From: Kayfunavirus MT1B1P3
Sequence record: OZ035815.1
Direction: 5' to 3' (one strand)
Length of the DNA: 40,159 nucleotides
Of the stretch, positions 3,094 to 29,866 are shown in pieces (the stretch's first letter is position 1; each line of letters starts with the position of its first letter). Made by a program: the position numbers and the translations under genes. The notes beneath the pieces are model-generated. The model made no database searches. It was not told where the DNA came from and saw nothing but the letters and a program-made list of their open reading frames with translations.

Positions 3094-3136
3094 CTAAGGT
3101 CAGTACGTGGATAAAGACCCACTCTACTGACCTTAG
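3094..3136. repeat. perfect 12-bp inverted repeat (ctaaggtcagta / tactgaccttag) with 19-nt loop
   Basis: direct reading of sequence; lies between gene 19.5 and the inferred genome right end. Confidence 0.6.
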
Positions 3137-3662: not shown

Positions 3663-3812
3663 ACCATAAGACACCAACACCTACAGTCATAGATCTACAG
3701 TTACTAGACACAGAGCTATAGACTTAAGGTCCAAGACATGTTAGTCAAAGACTATATCCTCTTACACCATGAGGCCGACGATAGCTTAATCAGTATTATT
3801 TCAAATTACCTA

Positions 3813-6488: not shown

Positions 6489-9170
6489 ATGAGCGTCATC
6501 TCTATTGATAAACACGACTTCTCTGATGTGTCGAACGCCATTGAGCCGTTTAACCTGCTGGCTGACCACTACGGGAAGGACCTTGCAGTCAAGCAGCTTC
6601 AGCTTGAGCATGAGGCATACACTGAAGGCGAGCGACGTTTCATCAAAAACCTTGAGCGACAGACTGAGCGCGGGGAACTGGCAGACAATCAGGTCGCCAA
6701 GCCTTTGATGCAGACTCTGGTTCCTAAGATTGCGCAAGCCGTCAGGGAGTGGTATGAAGGTCCAGACGGGAAGCTTTCAACCTCTCGTCCTAGCGTAGCG
6801 TTCACCATGTTAAGCACCGAAGAGAAGGCCGTCAAGGACCGCTCTCTGCGTATCCCTTGCGAGTCTGCTGCGGTCATCATACTGAAGGTCATACTCTCCA
6901 AGCTGGTAAAGCCTGAAGGGATACCGATTACACCGATGGCCTCCGCGATAGGTCGCACACTTGAGGACGAAATCCGCTTCGGTCGCATCCGTGACAAAGA
7001 GAAAGAGCACTTCAAGAAGGCGATAGCTGATAACCTGAATAAGCGGGCCGGGGCGTCCTACAAGAAAGCCTACATGCAAGCGGTCGAGACATCCATGCTG
7101 GAGCAAGGCCAACTGGAAGATGCGTGGGGAACTTGGAGTCCTACAGAGGCTGTCCACGTTGGCATCAAGATGCTTGAGATTGTCATCCAGTCAACACAAC
7201 TGGTCGAGCTTAAGCGGTACGGTGCTGGCAATGCAGCGGCTGACGTAGAGATGGTCCACCTGTCAGACTTCTGGGTCAAGAAGATGGCACAACGAGGATT
7301 CAGCCTTGCGGGTATAGCTCCAGTCTACCAGCCTTGCGTCGTTCCACCTAAGCCGTGGACTGGTGTCGTAGGTGGTGGGTACTGGGCCAAAGGTCGCAGA
7401 CCGCTACCCCTGATTCGCTTAGGGTCTAAATCAGCGGTGGCACGTTATGAAGACGTATACATGCCTGAAGTCTATGACGCTGTGAATATCATCCAGAATA
7501 CACCTTGGAAAGTGAACAAGAAGGTACTGGACGTGGTGAACATGGTCGAGAAGTTGAACAACACGCCTATTGATGACATCCCTCAGATGGAGCCACTGAA
7601 GCCTGAAGACTATGCGGGTGAGACTGAGGAGGAACTCAAGGCATGGAAGAAGGCTGCTGCTGGTATCTATCGCCGCGAGAAGGCCCGACAGTCGCGAAGA
7701 TTGTCACTGAGCTTTATCGTTAACCAAGCGAACAAGTTCTCTCAGTTCAAGGCCATCTGGTTCCCGTACAACATGGACTGGCGTGGGCGCGTCTACGCTG
7801 TTCCGATGTTCAACCCTCAGGGTAACGACATGCAGAAAGGTCTCCTTACTCTGGCAGTCGGTAAGCCTATTGGTGCTGACGGTTTCAAATGGCTGAAGGT
7901 CCATGGTGCAAACTGCGCGGGTGTTGATAAAGTCACCTTCGAGGAGCGCATCAAGTGGGTGGAAGACAACCACGACAACATTATGGCTGCTGCTAAGGCA
8001 CCGATGGATAGCATTGAGTGGTGGGGCAAGTTAGACTCTCCGTTCTGCTTCCTTGCGTTCTGCTTCGAGTATGCTGGTGTAATGCACCACGGATTGTCTT
8101 ACTCCTGCTCATTACCGATAGCGTTCGATGGGTCATGCTCAGGGATTCAGCACTTTAGCGCGATGCTTCGTGATCACATAGGTGGACATGCAGTAAACCT
8201 AACGCCTTCCGGTAAGGTCCAAGACATCTACCGAATCGTGTCCGACCGCATTGAGGAAGAGCTTAAAGTCCTGCTGGTTAACGGCACAGACAACGAGATG
8301 GTAACTCACGAGGACAAGAAAACTGGTGAGATTACCGAACGCCTCAAGCTGGGGACACGAGAGCTGGCCCGGCAGTGGCTGACTTACGGCATGTCACGCA
8401 AGGTCACTAAGCGTTCAGTAATGACTCTGGCCTATGGGTCGAAAGAGTACGGCTTCGCAGACCAAGTTTATGAGGACATCGTGATGCCGGCGATTGACTC
8501 AGGGTCTGGCGCTATGTTCACCGAACCAAGCCAAGCGTCCCGCTTCATGGCTAAGATGATTTGGGAAGCTGTGAGCGTGACCGTAGTTGCTGCGGTTGAC
8601 GCGATGAAGTGGCTTCAGGGTGCTGCCAAGCTGCTGGCTGCTGAAGTGAAGGACAAGAAGACTGGAGAAATACTGAAGCCTTGCCTTCCGGTACACTGGG
8701 TAACACCTGATGGTTTCCCGGTCTGGCAGGAATACCGCAAGAAGGATACCACTCGTCTGAATCTGATGTTCTTAGGGTCATTCAACCTTCAGCCTACGGT
8801 CAACAAAGGCACGAAGAAAGAGCTGGACAAGCACAAGCAGGAGTCAGGCATTAGCCCGAACTTCGTCCACTCACAAGATGGTAGCCACCTACGCAAGACT
8901 GTAGTCCACACGCACCGCAAGTATGGCGTGATGTCCTTCGCAGTGATTCACGATAGCTTCGGGACCATCCCGGCTGACGCTGAGTATCTGTTCCGTGGCG
9001 TCCGTGAGACGATGGTCGAGACCTACCGCGATAACGATGTGCTGCTTGACTTCTACGAGCAGTTTGAATACCAGCTTCACGAGAGCCAGCGCGACAAGTT
9101 GCCTGAGCTTCCGAAGAAAGGTAAACTGAATATCGAAGACATCTTGTCTTCAGACTTTGCATTCGCGTAA
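6489..9170 (+). CDS. 1: DNA-directed RNA polymerase, single-subunit (T7 gp1-like)
   Basis: 893-aa ORF; conserved T7 RNAP blocks recognised (TLAYGSKEYGF, PNFVHSQDGSHLRKTVV, VIHDSFGT, final FAFA); size matches T7 RNAP (883 aa). Confidence 0.97.
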   Translation: MSVISIDKHDFSDVSNAIEPFNLLADHYGKDLAVKQLQLEHEAYTEGERRFIKNLERQTERGELADNQVAKPLMQTLVPKIAQAVREWYEGPDGKLSTSRPSVAFTMLSTEEKAVKDRSLRIPCESAAVIILKVILSKLVKPEGIPITPMASAIGRTLEDEIRFGRIRDKEKEHFKKAIADNLNKRAGASYKKAYMQAVETSMLEQGQLEDAWGTWSPTEAVHVGIKMLEIVIQSTQLVELKRYGAGNAAADVEMVHLSDFWVKKMAQRGFSLAGIAPVYQPCVVPPKPWTGVVGGGYWAKGRRPLPLIRLGSKSAVARYEDVYMPEVYDAVNIIQNTPWKVNKKVLDVVNMVEKLNNTPIDDIPQMEPLKPEDYAGETEEELKAWKKAAAGIYRREKARQSRRLSLSFIVNQANKFSQFKAIWFPYNMDWRGRVYAVPMFNPQGNDMQKGLLTLAVGKPIGADGFKWLKVHGANCAGVDKVTFEERIKWVEDNHDNIMAAAKAPMDSIEWWGKLDSPFCFLAFCFEYAGVMHHGLSYSCSLPIAFDGSCSGIQHFSAMLRDHIGGHAVNLTPSGKVQDIYRIVSDRIEEELKVLLVNGTDNEMVTHEDKKTGEITERLKLGTRELARQWLTYGMSRKVTKRSVMTLAYGSKEYGFADQVYEDIVMPAIDSGSGAMFTEPSQASRFMAKMIWEAVSVTVVAAVDAMKWLQGAAKLLAAEVKDKKTGEILKPCLPVHWVTPDGFPVWQEYRKKDTTRLNLMFLGSFNLQPTVNKGTKKELDKHKQESGISPNFVHSQDGSHLRKTVVHTHRKYGVMSFAVIHDSFGTIPADAEYLFRGVRETMVETYRDNDVLLDFYEQFEYQLHESQRDKLPELPKKGKLNIEDILSSDFAFA

Positions 9171-9720: not shown

Positions 9721-9740
9721 CTAAACTATCACTATAGGAT
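9721..9740 (+). promoter_or_regulatory. phage RNAP promoter (phi1.1-like)
   Basis: ctaaactatcactataggat matches consensus. Confidence 0.65.
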
Positions 9741-9785
9741 TAGACTCAAGGTCATGACTCAAAGTCGTGGCCTTCATGATTAACC
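9741..9785 (+). promoter_or_regulatory. putative RNase III site (R1.1-like)
   Basis: tagactcaaggtcat...gtggccttcatgattaacc; resembles T7 R1.1 (aaggtcaatgagtggcctttatgattgacctt) from memory. Confidence 0.4.
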
Positions 9786-9815
9786 TTAAATAAACACTAC
9801 TGGAGATTTAACCAC

Positions 9816-14994: not shown

Positions 14995-15012
14995 ACTATC
15001 ACCTTAGGGATG
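14991..15012 (+). promoter_or_regulatory. phage RNAP promoter variant before gene 4
   Basis: ctaaactatcacCTtagggatg: two substitutions (-4, -3) relative to consensus; followed by hairpin gggaca...tgtccc. Confidence 0.4.
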
Positions 15013-15059
15013 GGACAATTAGTCCTGTCCCTTTGTTCGCATTTGTGATTAAGGAGTGA

Positions 15060-24701: not shown

Positions 24702-24723
24702 CTAAACTATCACTATAGGGAGA
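24702..24723 (+). promoter_or_regulatory. phage RNAP promoter (phi10-like, full consensus)
   Basis: ctaaactatcactatagggaga, identical to T7 consensus from -7 to +6 (CACTATAGGGAGA). Confidence 0.7.
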
Positions 24724-24825
24724 CCAAGAGATAGACTCAAGGTTTCCCTATTACTTCAGTCCATACGGATTGGGCATACAGTAAGTAATAAACTTTATCT
24801 TTCAATTGAATAGGAGAATTATCAT

Positions 24826-25869
24826 ATGGCAAACGTTCCGGGTCAGAAAATTGGTACAGACCAAGGTAAAGGCAAATCCAGTTCAGACGCTCTGGCGTTG
24901 TTCCTGAAGGTATTTGCTGGTGAAGTCCTGACCGCATTCACTCGCCGCTCTGTAACTGCTGACAAGCATATTGTCCGTACCATTCAGAACGGTAAGTCTG
25001 CTCAGTTCCCGGTCATGGGTCGCACCTCTGGTGTGTATCTGGCTCCGGGTGAGCGACTGTCCGATAAGCGTAAAGGTATCAAACATACCGAGAAAGTGAT
25101 TACCATTGATGGTCTGCTGACTGCCGATGTGATGATTTTCGACATTGAAGACGCGATGAACCACTACGACGTGGCTGGCGAGTATTCCAACCAGTTGGGC
25201 GAAGCTCTGGCTATCGCTGCTGATGGTGCGGTGCTGGCTGAAATGGCGATCCTGTGTAACCTACCGGCTGCATCCAACGAGAACATCGTGGGTCTGGGCA
25301 CTGCGTCAGTACTGGAAGTTGGCAAGAAAGCTGACCTCAACACCCCGGCTAAACTGGGTGAAGCAATCATTGGTCAACTGACCATTGCTCGTGCGAAGCT
25401 GACCTCCAACTACGTTCCTGCTGGCGACCGTTACTTCTACACCACGCCGGACAACTACTCTGCAATCCTAGCGGCTCTGATGCCGAACGCTGCTAACTAT
25501 GCTGCGCTGATTGACCCAGAGACTGGTAACATCCGTAACGTGATGGGCTTCGTTGTTGTTGAAGTTCCGCATCTGGTACAGGGTGGCGCTGGTGAGACTC
25601 GTGGTGACGATGGCATCTCTATCGCTTCCGGTCAGAAACACGCATTCCCGGCAACTGCTACTGGCGACGTTAAAGTTGCTATGGACAACGTTGTTGGTCT
25701 GTTCTCTCACCGTTCTGCTGTGGGTACTGTGAAGCTGCGTGACTTGGCGCTGGAACGTGACCGTGACGTAGATGCTCAGGGCGACCTGATTGTTGGTAAA
25801 TACGCTATGGGTCACGGTGGTCTGCGTCCTGAAGCGGCTGGCGCACTGGTTTTCAGCCCAGCGGCGTAA
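24826..25869 (+). CDS. 10A: major capsid protein (T7 gp10A-like)
   Basis: 347 aa; extensive recalled identity to T7 gp10A (LALFLKVF.GEVLTAF, GKSAQFPV.GRT, HTEKVITIDGLLTADV, DIEDAMNHYDV, ALMPNAANYAALIDPE, VGTVKLRDLALER, KYAMGHGGLRPEAAGA). Confidence 0.97.
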   Translation: MANVPGQKIGTDQGKGKSSSDALALFLKVFAGEVLTAFTRRSVTADKHIVRTIQNGKSAQFPVMGRTSGVYLAPGERLSDKRKGIKHTEKVITIDGLLTADVMIFDIEDAMNHYDVAGEYSNQLGEALAIAADGAVLAEMAILCNLPAASNENIVGLGTASVLEVGKKADLNTPAKLGEAIIGQLTIARAKLTSNYVPAGDRYFYTTPDNYSAILAALMPNAANYAALIDPETGNIRNVMGFVVVEVPHLVQGGAGETRGDDGISIASGQKHAFPATATGDVKVAMDNVVGLFSHRSAVGTVKLRDLALERDRDVDAQGDLIVGKYAMGHGGLRPEAAGALVFSPAA

Positions 25870-26004: not shown

Positions 26005-26043
26005 AACCCCTTGGGTGCCTTCGGGTGCTTGAGGGGTTTTTTG
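26005..26043 (+). terminator. phage RNAP terminator (Tphi-like) after capsid gene
   Basis: aaccccttgggtgccttcgggtgcttgaggggttttttg: GC-rich hairpin plus T-run, very similar to recalled T7 Tphi. Confidence 0.8.
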
Positions 26044-26158: not shown

Positions 26159-26725
26159 ATGGCTCAATACATTCCACTGAATGCTAACGATGACTTAGAC
26201 GCCATCAACGATATGTTAGCTGCTATCGGTGAACCAGCAGTCCTACAGCTTGACGAGGGGAACGCTGACGTCTCGAACGCTCAACGTATCCTGCATCGTG
26301 TCAATCGTCAGGTCCAAGCTAAAGGCTGGAACTTTAATATCAATGAAGCTGCTGTCCTGACACCTGATGTCCAAGACAATAGGATTCGATTCTTGCCGTC
26401 ATACCTTCGCGTAATGACCGCTGGGGCCACCAGCTACTACAGCAACATGGGTGGATACCTGTACGACCTATCCACTCAGTCAACCACTTTCACCGACCCC
26501 ATCACGGTAGAGCTTGTGGAGATGAAGCCATTCTCCGAGATGCCTGTGGTCTTCAGGGACTACATCGTCACTAAAGCTAGCCGTGAGTTCAACGCTAAGT
26601 TCTTCGGTAGCCCAGAGTCAGAGCTATACCTTCGTGAGCAGGAAGCAGAACTCTATCAGCAGGTTATGGAGTACGAGATGGACACTGGTCGCTACAACAT
26701 GATGTCTGACATCGGGAGGGACTAA
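26159..26725 (+). CDS. 11: tail tubular protein A (T7 gp11-like)
   Basis: recalled similarity to T7 gp11 (AIGEP.V..L......D...A.RIL...NRQ.Q..GW.FN, YEMD.G.YNM). Confidence 0.9.
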   Translation: MAQYIPLNANDDLDAINDMLAAIGEPAVLQLDEGNADVSNAQRILHRVNRQVQAKGWNFNINEAAVLTPDVQDNRIRFLPSYLRVMTAGATSYYSNMGGYLYDLSTQSTTFTDPITVELVEMKPFSEMPVVFRDYIVTKASREFNAKFFGSPESELYLREQEAELYQQVMEYEMDTGRYNMMSDIGRD

Positions 26726-26961: not shown

Positions 26962-29319
26962 ATGCCACTAATTACTCAATCAATCAAGAACCTTAAAGGT
27001 GGTATTAGCCAGCAGCCAGACATACTGAGGTTCTCAGACCAAGGCGAAGCACAAGTTAACTGCTGGTCATCCGAGAGTGATGGCCTCCAGAAGCGCCCAC
27101 CTACAGTCTTCAAGCGACGTCTTAACATCGACGTTGGAAGCAACCCTAAGTTCCACCTGATTAACCGTGATGAGCAGGAGCAGTATTACATCGTGTTCAA
27201 TGGGTCAAACATTCAGGTAGTTGACTTGAGTGGTAATCAATACGCAGTGTCAGGTTCGGTAGACTACGTTAAGTCCTCCAACCCACGAGATGACATCCGT
27301 GTCGTTACCGTGGCAGACTATACGTTCGTCGTTAACCGTAAGGTTGTCGTCAAAGGTGGAAGCGAGAAGTCACACTCTGGTTATAACCGCAAAGCACGAG
27401 CTTTAATTAACCTACGTGGTGGACAGTATGGTCGAACCCTTAAGGTGGGAATCAACGGTGGCGTTAAGGTCTCGCATAAGCTACCAGCAGGTAATGATGC
27501 CGAGAATGACCCGCCTAAGGTGGACGCTCAAGCCATTGGTGCAGCTCTGAGAGACCTTCTTGTTACTGCCTACCCTACCTTCACGTTTGACCTTGGGTCT
27601 GGATTCCTGCTAATCACAGCTCCTTCAGGGACCGATATTAACTCAGTGGAGACGGAGGATGGCTACGCTAACCAGCTAATAAGCCCAGTCCTAGACACTG
27701 TGCAGACAATCTCTAAACTACCTCTTGCCGCTCCTAATGGGTATATCATTAAGATTCAAGGTGAGACAAACAGTAGCGCCGATGAATACTACGTGATGTA
27801 TGACTCCAACACTAAGACGTGGAAGGAGACAGTGGAGCCGGGAGTTGTCACTGGGTTCGATAACACCACAATGCCACACGCTCTGGTACGACAATCTGAT
27901 GGCTCCTTTGAGTTCAAGGCTCTGGACTGGTCTAAGCGTGGTGCTGGTAATGATGACACAAGCCCTATGCCTAGCTTCGTGGATGCTACGATTAACGATG
28001 TGTTCTTCTACAGGAACAGGCTAGGGTTCTTGTCAGGCGAGAACGTAATCATGAGCCGTTCAGCAAGCTACTTTGCGTTCTTCCCTAAGAGTGTGGCGAC
28101 ACTGAGTGATGATGACCCTATTGATGTAGCTGTAAGTCACCCTAGAATCTCAATCCTTAAGTATGCCGTTCCGTTTAGCGAGCAGCTACTACTTTGGTCA
28201 GATGAAGTGCAGTTCGTGATGACAAGCTCAGGGGTCCTTACCTCGAAGTCTATCCAGCTTGATGTAGGCTCAGAGTTTGCCTTAGGAGATAATGCCAGAC
28301 CGTTCGCTGTAGGACGCTCAGTCTTCTTCTCAGCGCCTCGTGGGTCATTCACCAGCATTAAGCGATACTTCGCTGTAGCAGATGTGTCTGACGTGAAGGA
28401 TGCCGATGATACCACTGGTCACGTACTATCCTATATCCCTAACGGGGTGTTTGACATTCAGGGAACAGGGACTGAGAACTACATCTGCGTCAACTCTACA
28501 GGTGCATACAACCGAATCTACCTCTACAAGTTCTTGTTTAAGGACGGCGTACAGCTTCAAGCCTCTTGGTCTCACTGGGAGTTCCCTAAAGCTGATAAGA
28601 TTCTGGCGTCTGCGTCGATTGGCTCTACCATGTTCATTGTTCGTCAGCACCAAGGCGGCGTGGACCTTGAGCACCTTAAGTTCATCAAGGAGGCAACTGA
28701 CTTTCCATCAGAGCCGTATAGACTCCACGTTGACTCCAAGGTGTCTATGGTCATCCCAATTGGCTCGTTTAATGCTGACACATATAAGACTACGGTTGAC
28801 ATTGGTGCTGCTTATGGTGGTAATGCTCCGTCTCCCGGTCGGTACTATCTGATTGACAGTCAGGGTGCTTATTTGGACCTTGGGGACTTGACCAGTATCT
28901 CTACTGTGATTACCCTCAACGGCGATTGGTCAGGACGTACAGTGTTCATCGGGCGGCCCTATCTGATGTCCTACAAGTTCTCACGGTTCCTGATTAAGAT
29001 TGAAGATGATAGTGGCACTCAGTCTGAAGACACTGGTCGTCTACAGCTTCGTCGGGCTTGGGTCAACTACAAGGACACTGGCGCTCTGAGACTCATTGTC
29101 AGAAACGGTGAGCGAGAGTTCGTTAACACCTTTAATGGGTACACACTTGGTCAGCAGACCATAGGGACTACTAACATTGGTGACGGGCAGTATCGCTTCG
29201 CTATGAATGGTAACGCATTAACCACGAGTCTAACCTTAGAGTCCGACTATCCTACCCCAGTGTCAATCGTTGGATGTGGCTGGGAGGCGTCATACGCTAA
29301 GAAAGCTCGTTCCGTCTAA
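26962..29319 (+). CDS. 12: tail tubular protein B (T7 gp12-like)
   Basis: 785 aa (T7 gp12 794 aa); conserved position after gene 11; N-terminus MPLITQSIKNLKGGISQQP. Confidence 0.9.
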   Translation: MPLITQSIKNLKGGISQQPDILRFSDQGEAQVNCWSSESDGLQKRPPTVFKRRLNIDVGSNPKFHLINRDEQEQYYIVFNGSNIQVVDLSGNQYAVSGSVDYVKSSNPRDDIRVVTVADYTFVVNRKVVVKGGSEKSHSGYNRKARALINLRGGQYGRTLKVGINGGVKVSHKLPAGNDAENDPPKVDAQAIGAALRDLLVTAYPTFTFDLGSGFLLITAPSGTDINSVETEDGYANQLISPVLDTVQTISKLPLAAPNGYIIKIQGETNSSADEYYVMYDSNTKTWKETVEPGVVTGFDNTTMPHALVRQSDGSFEFKALDWSKRGAGNDDTSPMPSFVDATINDVFFYRNRLGFLSGENVIMSRSASYFAFFPKSVATLSDDDPIDVAVSHPRISILKYAVPFSEQLLLWSDEVQFVMTSSGVLTSKSIQLDVGSEFALGDNARPFAVGRSVFFSAPRGSFTSIKRYFAVADVSDVKDADDTTGHVLSYIPNGVFDIQGTGTENYICVNSTGAYNRIYLYKFLFKDGVQLQASWSHWEFPKADKILASASIGSTMFIVRQHQGGVDLEHLKFIKEATDFPSEPYRLHVDSKVSMVIPIGSFNADTYKTTVDIGAAYGGNAPSPGRYYLIDSQGAYLDLGDLTSISTVITLNGDWSGRTVFIGRPYLMSYKFSRFLIKIEDDSGTQSEDTGRLQLRRAWVNYKDTGALRLIVRNGEREFVNTFNGYTLGQQTIGTTNIGDGQYRFAMNGNALTTSLTLESDYPTPVSIVGCGWEASYAKKARSV

Positions 29320-29344
29320 CTTATTGAAGGGCCTATAGATTTAC

Positions 29345-29365
29345 CTTAACTATCACTATAGGGAC
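29345..29365 (+). promoter_or_regulatory. phage RNAP promoter (phi13-like)
   Basis: cttaactatcactatagggac; sits inside a 12-bp inverted repeat. Confidence 0.65.
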
Positions 29366-29395
29366 TATAGGCCCTTAAGGTTATAAGGAGACTTT

Positions 29396-29866
29396 ATGTA
29401 TATTCGCAAGGCTACGGAACCAGATGTCCACTACTTTCTGTGGCATCTTTCAGCAGATGATGTTAATGAGTGCAAAGCAAACTATGGGTCAACCGTTGGT
29501 CTCTCTGAAAGACTGCTTAAGCACCTATCTCCATCATCTGTGGTTTTAACGAACGGTGTAGGCGAAGTGTTTGCTTATGGTGGAAACCAAGGGGATAACG
29601 TATGGTTCTTGACTTCTGGTCTTGTCTATAAGCTGAGACCTAAAGAGAAGCGGGAGTTCATAAAGCGTATCTCTGAGTACAGGGACTTAATGTTAGACCA
29701 ATACGGGACCATCTGGAACTACGTGTGGTCAGGCAATAAGTCTCACATTAAATTCTTGAAGTTGCTTGGGGCTAAATTCCATGATGATTGGACTGTAAGC
29801 CCAGTAACTGGTGAGCGTTTTCAACTATTCACTATCTCTAAGGAGGACGTATGTGCGAGCCAGTAA
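29396..29866 (+). CDS. 13: internal virion protein A (T7 gp13-like)
   Basis: 156-aa ORF with SD (taaggag); assigned by position and size. Confidence 0.65.
   Translation: MYIRKATEPDVHYFLWHLSADDVNECKANYGSTVGLSERLLKHLSPSSVVLTNGVGEVFAYGGNQGDNVWFLTSGLVYKLRPKEKREFIKRISEYRDLMLDQYGTIWNYVWSGNKSHIKFLKLLGAKFHDDWTVSPVTGERFQLFTISKEDVCASQ

Follow-up and report, generated by a model that had tools for sequence, protein, structure and literature searches.

The spacer between genes 12 and 13 of Kayfunavirus MT1B1P3 holds a promoter for the phage RNA polymerase, and on its two sides lie the arms of an inverted repeat without a single mismatch. Why should a promoter be enclosed in this way, and does the repeat act in DNA, in RNA or not at all? 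We have addressed this question in the whole stretch of 40,159 nucleotides (record OZ035815.1, one strand, hereafter called the window) and in the corresponding spacers of related phages.

The inverted repeat and its surroundings

The 1 kb around the repeat is about 97.5% identical to coliphage K1F (Kayfunavirus, Studiervirinae), and the DNA of phage ASO2B is 98.8% identical to the window in the repeat region. The structural genes of the window follow the T7 gene order, as confirmed by Pfam. The relevant features are:

6489-9170: single-subunit RNA polymerase gene (Pfam)
24826-25869: major capsid protein gene (Pfam)
26018-26035, plus strand: Tphi-like terminator hairpin, then GTTTTTTGCT, located 3' of the capsid gene (terminator scan)
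26159-26725: tail tubular protein A gene (Pfam)
26962-29319, plus strand: gene 12, tail tubular protein B / nozzle (ORF; Pfam Phage_nozzle, 1094 bits; ASO2B annotation)
29317-29319, plus strand: gene 12 stop codon TAA, 8 nt ahead of the 5' arm
29327-29338, plus strand: 5' arm AAGGGCCTATAG, promoter positions -34 to -23
29339-29364, plus strand: loop of 26 nt between the arms, including promoter positions -17 to +4
29344-29366, plus strand: phage-RNA-polymerase promoter phi13, CCTTAACTATCACTATAGGGACT, positions -17 to +6 (repeated core; ASO2B promoter feature)
29355-29372, plus strand: tandem 9-nt near-duplicate ACTATAGGG / ACTATAGGC (read from the sequence; palindrome listing)
29365-29376, plus strand: 3' arm CTATAGGCCCTT, promoter positions +5 to +16
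29384-29390, plus strand: Shine-Dalgarno sequence TAAGGAG of gene 13, 8 nt past the hairpin
29396-29866, plus strand: gene 13, internal virion / assembly protein (Pfam Phage_T7_Gp13)
after gp13: gp14 (Pfam)

An earlier note on this DNA had claimed a perfect 12-bp inverted repeat flanking the gene-13 promoter, and both points hold. The arms AAGGGCCTATAG and CTATAGGCCCTT lie exactly where it had placed them, are 12 bp long and 100% complementary, and stand 26 nt apart. The word 'enclosed' is nearly exact for the promoter at 29344-29366, since its positions -17 to +4 are in the loop and +5 and +6 are the first two bases of the 3' arm. The promoter is recognized by its core ACTATCACTATAGG at 29349-29362, of which about ten near-identical copies occur across the window; a core search allowing up to 3 mismatches gave 14 matches in the window against 2.95 expected. 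In the ASO2B record, the 23 nt that map to 29344-29366 of the window are annotated as a promoter. The predicted phi13 start (+1) is the G at 29361, and no match to a minus-strand promoter was found in the 5' arm at up to 3 mismatches.

Genes 11 and 12 sit between the Tphi-like terminator and the gene-13 promoter, without a promoter of their own. The scan for the repeated core of the window found no promoter core between 24706 and 29349, and all gene 11-12 transcripts therefore run into the repeat.

Could such a repeat be fortuitous? The self-complementary CTATAG makes up 6 of the 12 bases in each arm, and the 3' arm, most of it supplied by the second copy of the tandem near-duplicate, nearly repeats the promoter core. 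The repeat might then be a functionless by-product of the 9-nt core duplication and the palindromic CTATAG, preserved by low divergence. (With the promoter core itself, the 5' arm can form 7 bp at most, CCUAUAG/CUAUAGG.) Across the window, there are 2 perfect 12-bp inverted repeats with loops of at most 60 nt against 0.185 expected, and at least one such repeat appeared in 23 of 200 dinucleotide shuffles; this chance of about 11% leaves the by-product explanation some room, and the genome-wide count on its own is weak evidence against chance. The enclosure of a promoter speaks differently, as a perfect repeat of at least 12 bp spanning any of 12 promoter-like sites was obtained in only 2 of 3000 genomes with shuffled promoter flanks. 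Among the 12 promoter-like sites of the window, the gene-13 promoter is also alone in having an enclosing repeat at k = 9 to 12. We regard the repeat as genuine and not random.

The sole other perfect 12-bp inverted repeat of the window (3094-3105 / 3125-3136) folds as a 12-bp stem inside a longer structure of -29.1 kcal/mol. It lies downstream of a promoter at 2704, in a stretch of about 1.1 kb without long ORFs (a 587-aa ORF ends at 2604, and the next ORF is at 3738). Probably this is where the genome ends, or where the early leader lies, in an assembly that is circularly permuted; the repeat may be a palindrome for end processing or an RNase III site of the R0.3 type.

Predicted RNA structure and the comparison with T7 and its relatives

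RNA folding gives a 12-bp stem, with z = -2.69 in an 81-nt and z = -4.68 in a 90-nt context. In 250- and 450-nt RNA contexts the 10 inner pairs form with a probability of about 1.0, as against 0.64 and 0.89 for the two outer A-U pairs. In the loop, a 5-bp upper helix between CCUUA (29344-29348) and UAGGG (29359-29363) has a pair probability of about 0.47. Lower helices formed by UAACU/GGUUA or CUUAU/AUAAG would mimic the classic T7 order of upper stem, internal loop and lower stem, or hide the Shine-Dalgarno sequence; with probabilities of 0.17 or less in long contexts, they were dropped. An intrinsic terminator was rejected as well, the stem being followed by TTAAGGTTATAAGG and no U-run, and the terminator scan found no terminator-like site at 29327-29390. 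An Rfam scan of 29100-29600 returned two chance-level matches away from the hairpin (E = 0.43 and 5.5), both far under their gathering scores.

RNA initiated at phi13 has the 3' arm alone, and therefore cannot form this hairpin and would be no substrate. Its leader is less structured than shuffles (z = +1.17), and on this value a stabilising 5' hairpin in the phi13-initiated RNA was rejected. The gene-13 Shine-Dalgarno sequence is mostly open in this RNA, more so than in read-through RNA.

In T7, R13 is one of ten RNase cleavage sites (PMC6938266); it overlaps the promoter phi13 (Dunn & Studier 1983, as cited in later papers) and is described as a weak site. The T7 record places the phi13 +1 at 27274, and the T7 spacer RNA folds into a 15-bp stem, UUCUCCCUGUGGUGG / CACUAUAGGGAGAA (z = -4.37), the 3' arm of which is the phi13 core itself, with G·U pairs. 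The predicted T7 hairpin starts at 27234 and the gene-12 stop is at 27226; the 5' arm thus begins 8 nt past the gene-12 stop in both T7 and the window. The cut in T7 R13 is said to have been placed at coordinate 27281 by Dunn & Studier; the T7 records examined carry no annotation of this position, which serves here as a lead only.

The likeness to T7 R13 drawn in the earlier note stands for position and for the promoter-containing hairpin: the same gene 12-13 spacer is used, the promoter specificity region is in the loop, and the hairpin is formed in read-through RNA only. It fails for the geometry of the 3' arm, which in T7 and T3 consists of the promoter core and start (about -7 to +8), whereas in the window it is a separate segment (+5 to +16). 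The 5' arms are unrelated in sequence (UUCUCCCUGUGGUGG in T7 versus AAGGGCCUAUAG in the window). Moreover, T7 R13 is experimentally known, if weak, whereas the element in the window is a predicted site. Relative to T7 and T3, the sequence with which the 5' arm pairs has shifted from the promoter core to its downstream copy.

The GenBank annotations of T3 and phiYeO3-12 (NC_003298, NC_001271) contain the same kind of element. In the T3 record the stem_loop named 'RNase III recognition site R13' spans 25443-25480 and includes the promoter phi13 (25457-25479); phiYeO3-12 is annotated in the same way, with a stem-loop R13 containing phi13, except that the site is labelled 'putative'. As in the window, these annotated stem-loops hold the 23-nt promoter and occupy the same genomic place, but unlike the window they have the T7-type geometry, GUCUCCCUG(C/U)GGUGA / UCACUAAAGGGAGAC. 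Between phi13 and gene 13, a homopolymer of about 14 to 15 G was seen in T3 (L043, 997-1011) and in Dickeya phage W2B (L032); phiYeO3-12, a close T3 relative, has only GAGGGG there. The G run in T3 and W2B may be genuine, as a slippery tract, or may be an artefact of sequencing.

Pairs of a promoter and an RNase III hairpin are common in T7, R1.1, R3.8 and R6.5 being among them. At these three sites the transcription start lies upstream of the whole hairpin, and the promoter-initiated RNA is therefore also a substrate, whereas the phi13 start lies inside the hairpin and therefore only read-through RNA is a substrate.

Several other promoters of the window are followed by hairpins. Directly past the promoter at 9725 (+1 = 9737), the hairpin GACUCAAGGUCAUGACUCAAAGUCGUGGCCUUCAUGAUU at 9737-9790 (R1.1-like site at about 9745-9790) closely resembles the T7 segment ACUCAAGGUCAUUCGCAAGAGUGGCCUUUAUGAUUGACCUU after phi1.1A, which we take to be the R1.1 RNase III site; with such an R1.1-like hairpin, the phage seems to keep T7-type processing sites. 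After the phi10-like promoter at 24706, which lies upstream of the capsid gene, comes a 5' stem-loop at 24718-24760, GGGAGACCAAGAG...GGUUUCCC, similar to that of the T7 phi10 leader; an 11-bp hairpin, GGGAUGGGACAAUUAGUCCUGUCCC, lies at 15007-15035, after the promoter-like site at 14995.

A homologue of gp13 is present in about 1170 records; the wider sample consisted of the gene 12-13 spacers of ten further phages together with the refolded IMG/VR locus L023. Eight of the ten phages belong to Helsettvirus, Teetrevirus, Przondovirus, Elunavirus, Minipunavirus, Ningirsuvirus, Ghunavirus and Kayfunavirus; no genus is recorded for the other two, which infect Pectobacterium and Yersinia. Altogether 13 other Studiervirinae spacers fold into a hairpin around the gene-13 promoter, with other arm sequences and with G·U pairs. 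As judged from per-sequence folds, the hairpin encloses the upstream half of the promoter in each non-K1F spacer, and its 5' arm is complementary to the promoter core of its own lineage; the 3' arm is the promoter core and start (about -7 to +8) in T7, T3 and 11 other spacers, but not in the window. Examples are the arms GGUCUCUCUCGGGUG / CACUAACGGGAGAGACC of Pantoea phage SK1, UCCUUAUGGUGUGCUC / GGGCACACUAUAGGGA of Klebsiella phage Henu1 and GUCCCCUAU / AUAGGGGAC of L023, the last with T7-type geometry. RNAalifold on a MAFFT alignment of 12 T7-type hairpins recovered only 7 pairs (-4.1 kcal/mol), because the arm positions are not alignable across genera, and was replaced by the per-sequence folds. 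Two distant relatives, Aeromonas phage T7-Ah (L039) and Vibrio phage JSF11 (L040), have no gene 12-13 spacer, and no promoter or hairpin at that place; their gene 13 overlaps another upstream gene, deoxyribonucleoside kinase-like or annotated as 'symport protein'.

The relatives with a hairpin also bear on whether DNA or RNA is the relevant molecule. At least one G·U pair is present in 14 of 14 representative hairpins, and for all 14 the sense strand gives the stronger fold (means -21.7 for sense versus -17.3 kcal/mol for antisense). The G·U pairs and the sense-strand stability therefore argue for selection on the RNA transcript rather than on a two-stranded DNA structure.

The earlier note had also proposed a DNA cruciform that would affect promoter access, and the stem in the window, being perfect Watson-Crick, is indeed equally possible on both DNA strands. 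However, cruciforms need short spacers and strong negative supercoiling, whereas the spacer here is 26 bp and extrusion would melt the whole promoter; the DNA hairpin of either strand reaches only -11.4 kcal/mol, the phage genome is linear in its mature form (GenBank records), and the stems of the relatives depend on G·U pairs and lose stability on the antisense strand. The cruciform was thus not borne out, and control of polymerase access to phi13 by such a structure is extremely improbable. A hairpin in single-stranded DNA during replication might belong to a secondary origin associated with the promoter, or might be a weakness sensed by hairpin-recognising defences. This idea has some background behind it: a role as secondary replication origin has been reported for T7 phi13, and T7 RNase III-site palindromes trigger Lamassu DdmABC as DNA. 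We nevertheless give it very little credence, since the strand asymmetry and the G·U dependence do not fit it, 12 bp of stem around a loop of 26 nt make a weak hairpin in DNA, and no link to replication was found within the window.

Variation of the arms among K1F-type phages

The K1F-type sample comprised 34 gene 12-13 spacers, namely the window, 24 IMG/VR loci and 9 GenBank records. When conservation of the repeat was checked in this sample, the 3' arm CTATAGGCCCTT proved invariant in 33 of the 34 spacers and the 9-bp core GGCCTATAG/CTATAGGCC was kept in 31, while the perfect 12 bp are present in just 15. GGCCTATAG is the inner 9 nt of the 5' arm, the outer AAG of which is variable among the relatives; the 5'-arm core is thus an invariant block both flanks of which vary.

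The sample contains 19 distinct haplotypes, in which 8 of the 12 stem pairs show no variation at all. The outer 3 bp of the stem decay in most of them, the pair 29329-29374 being broken by a U·C mismatch in 13 of 19. No pair was found changed on both sides among these haplotypes. With compensatory changes absent from the K1F type, the case for its stem is made by conservation and by the family-wide recurrence of the hairpin. What keeps the 3' arm invariant might, moreover, be a constraint on the initially transcribed sequence or on the leader, and not pairing. In one relative (L005), G in place of A turns one pair into G·U, a change consistent with pairing. In Ro103C3lw (L045) the 5' arm is rebuilt into a 15-bp stem, GCCUAUAGUCUCUAU/AUAGGGACUAUAGGC, which reaches promoter position -3 and has a geometry intermediate between the K1F and T7 types.

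These data also bear on the by-product explanation. The lack of compensatory covariation and the decayed outer 3 bp fit it. On the other hand, a by-product would hardly account for a 5'-arm core that stays invariant between variable flanks, a same-place hairpin with differing sequences in at least 9 genera, the rebuilt 15-bp stem of L045, the greater strength of the structure on the sense strand, or the rarity of enclosing repeats in the simulations. We consider a functionless repeat improbable, and a selected RNA hairpin at this place highly probable.

The arms persist around at least 4 different promoter specificity sequences in the loop. Close relatives (L020, L025, L027, L042 and L045-L048) carry the specificity regions ATTACACCCTCACTATA, TTTAACACTCACTATA and TTTTACCCTCACTATA, as against TTAACTATCACTATA in the window, between the same arms. 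Such differing loops between unchanged arms suggest an exchange of polymerase/promoter specificity in genomes that otherwise resemble K1F.

In L015, L016, L019, L022, L025, L026, L045 and L046, the gene-13 leader has an insertion of 10 nt (ATACTTTAAG or a similar sequence) that separates the hairpin from the Shine-Dalgarno sequence. L047 has a 7-nt form of this insertion, and its fold shows a second small hairpin, CUUUAAGU...ACUUAAGG, beside the first. Two close matches come from phages assigned to unexpected hosts: EFA-1 (Enterococcus phage, MT350292), with a gp13 94.8% identical to the protein of the window, and vB_Aba_01KA (Acinetobacter phage, PV615262), with DNA 97.5% identical over this region. 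For these Gram-positive or non-enteric hosts, host misassignment or contamination is likely.

Proposed processing of read-through transcripts and its meaning

We favour, as a rather likely reading of the whole, that the repeat specifies a sense-strand RNA hairpin that is the Kayfunavirus counterpart of the T7/T3 R13/phi13 composite and is cut by RNase III. The cutting of the hairpin by the host RNase III, taken as a step by itself and judged by analogy, has about an even chance of being correct. The hairpin, a 12-bp stem with a 26-nt loop perhaps partly closed by the 5-bp upper helix, would arise only in late transcripts that pass the Tphi-like terminator, run through genes 11 and 12 and cross phi13. 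The cut by host RNase III would probably fall on the 3' side of the stem, at its base or just 3' of it (about 29375-29380), and would most likely be inefficient. The stem-loop would then be left as a protective 3' end on the gene 11-12 mRNA, and the mRNA from gene 13 onward would be released with a short, open leader resembling that of the phi13-initiated RNA (+1 = 29361). We infer the cut position from the T7/T3 analogy and from the rules of RNase III cleavage, and likewise infer the stabilising effect on the upstream message.

How well would the stem serve as a substrate? E. coli RNase III needs a helix of at least 11 bp between the cut and the loop (PMC1540722, PMC3867540), a minimum that the 12 perfect bp of the stem just reach. 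The uR1.1 minimal substrate (Pertzev & Nicholson 2006, PMC1540722) has a tetraloop, whereas the loop in the window is 26 nt. Antideterminants of RNase III are G-C or C-G pairs at proximal-box positions 2 (for binding) and 4 (for catalysis); if the cut is at the stem base, pb4 and pb3 are both A-U and pb2 is G29329-C29374, a binding antideterminant. Because 12 bp barely satisfies the minimum and pb2 would then be G-C, weak cleavage at best is to be expected, which matches the weakness of T7 R13. Single-strand cuts by RNase III are known to leave stabilising 3' hairpins (PMC3867540). In the literature on RNase III sites or transcript mapping of K1F and Kayfunavirus, no processing or transcript-end data were found.

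The same features might also mean that the hairpin forms in read-through RNA and is not cut by RNase III, and that by itself it hinders 3'-to-5' exonucleases or sets a decay boundary where the gene 11-12 message ends. The stem is robust but short, it would have a G-C pair at the binding-antideterminant position if cut at its base, the classic lower stem is not predicted, and even T7 R13 is a weak site. Without an endonucleolytic cut or a terminator, however, nothing would make a 3' end at the hairpin, and no terminator-like site is present at 29327-29390; furthermore, the homologous elements of T3 and phiYeO3-12 are annotated as RNase III sites. An uncut hairpin is in our judgement unlikely, if deserving of attention.

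Another conceivable layer is pairing in trans. The phi13-initiated RNA carries, near its start, a free copy of the 3' arm (+5 to +16) that is perfectly complementary to the 5' arm, and this RNA, or abortive or short products from phi13, might pair with the 5' arm of gene 11-12 transcripts and tune their processing or stability. Such pairing would compete with hairpin formation and would make the embedding of the promoter a conserved regulatory coupling, in analogy to the antitermination of Tphi that has been reported for abortive transcripts (PMC2952870). The intramolecular hairpin should, however, beat trans pairing kinetically, and we attach only a very slight probability to this idea.

Returning to the reading we favour, the proposal in the earlier note of a read-through hairpin as a candidate R13-like site is, by analogy, upheld by the position of the hairpin, by the T3 and phiYeO3-12 annotations and by the recurrence in 13 spacers; the comparison also shows a difference that the note does not mention, as the 3' arm is not of the T7 type.

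Taken together, the element is the K1F-type form of the long-known R13/phi13 composite with a shifted 3' arm. The arrangement is ordinary and would not surprise a T7 specialist; it opens no new question, and RNase III sites of the T7 group are dispensable for laboratory growth (PMC6938266). Its main value lies in annotation: a stem-loop or RNase III site is annotated in none of 60 records sampled from the 220 that carry the spacer, and about 220 public K1F-type genomes could gain an R13-like stem-loop label around phi13. In addition, a promoter-enclosing hairpin at gene 13 is now documented through much of the Studiervirinae. The 5' arm tracks the promoter core of its lineage, with the K1F type as a version rebuilt on a duplicated core segment, and the locus thereby offers an example of how a composite promoter and RNA-processing signal evolves.
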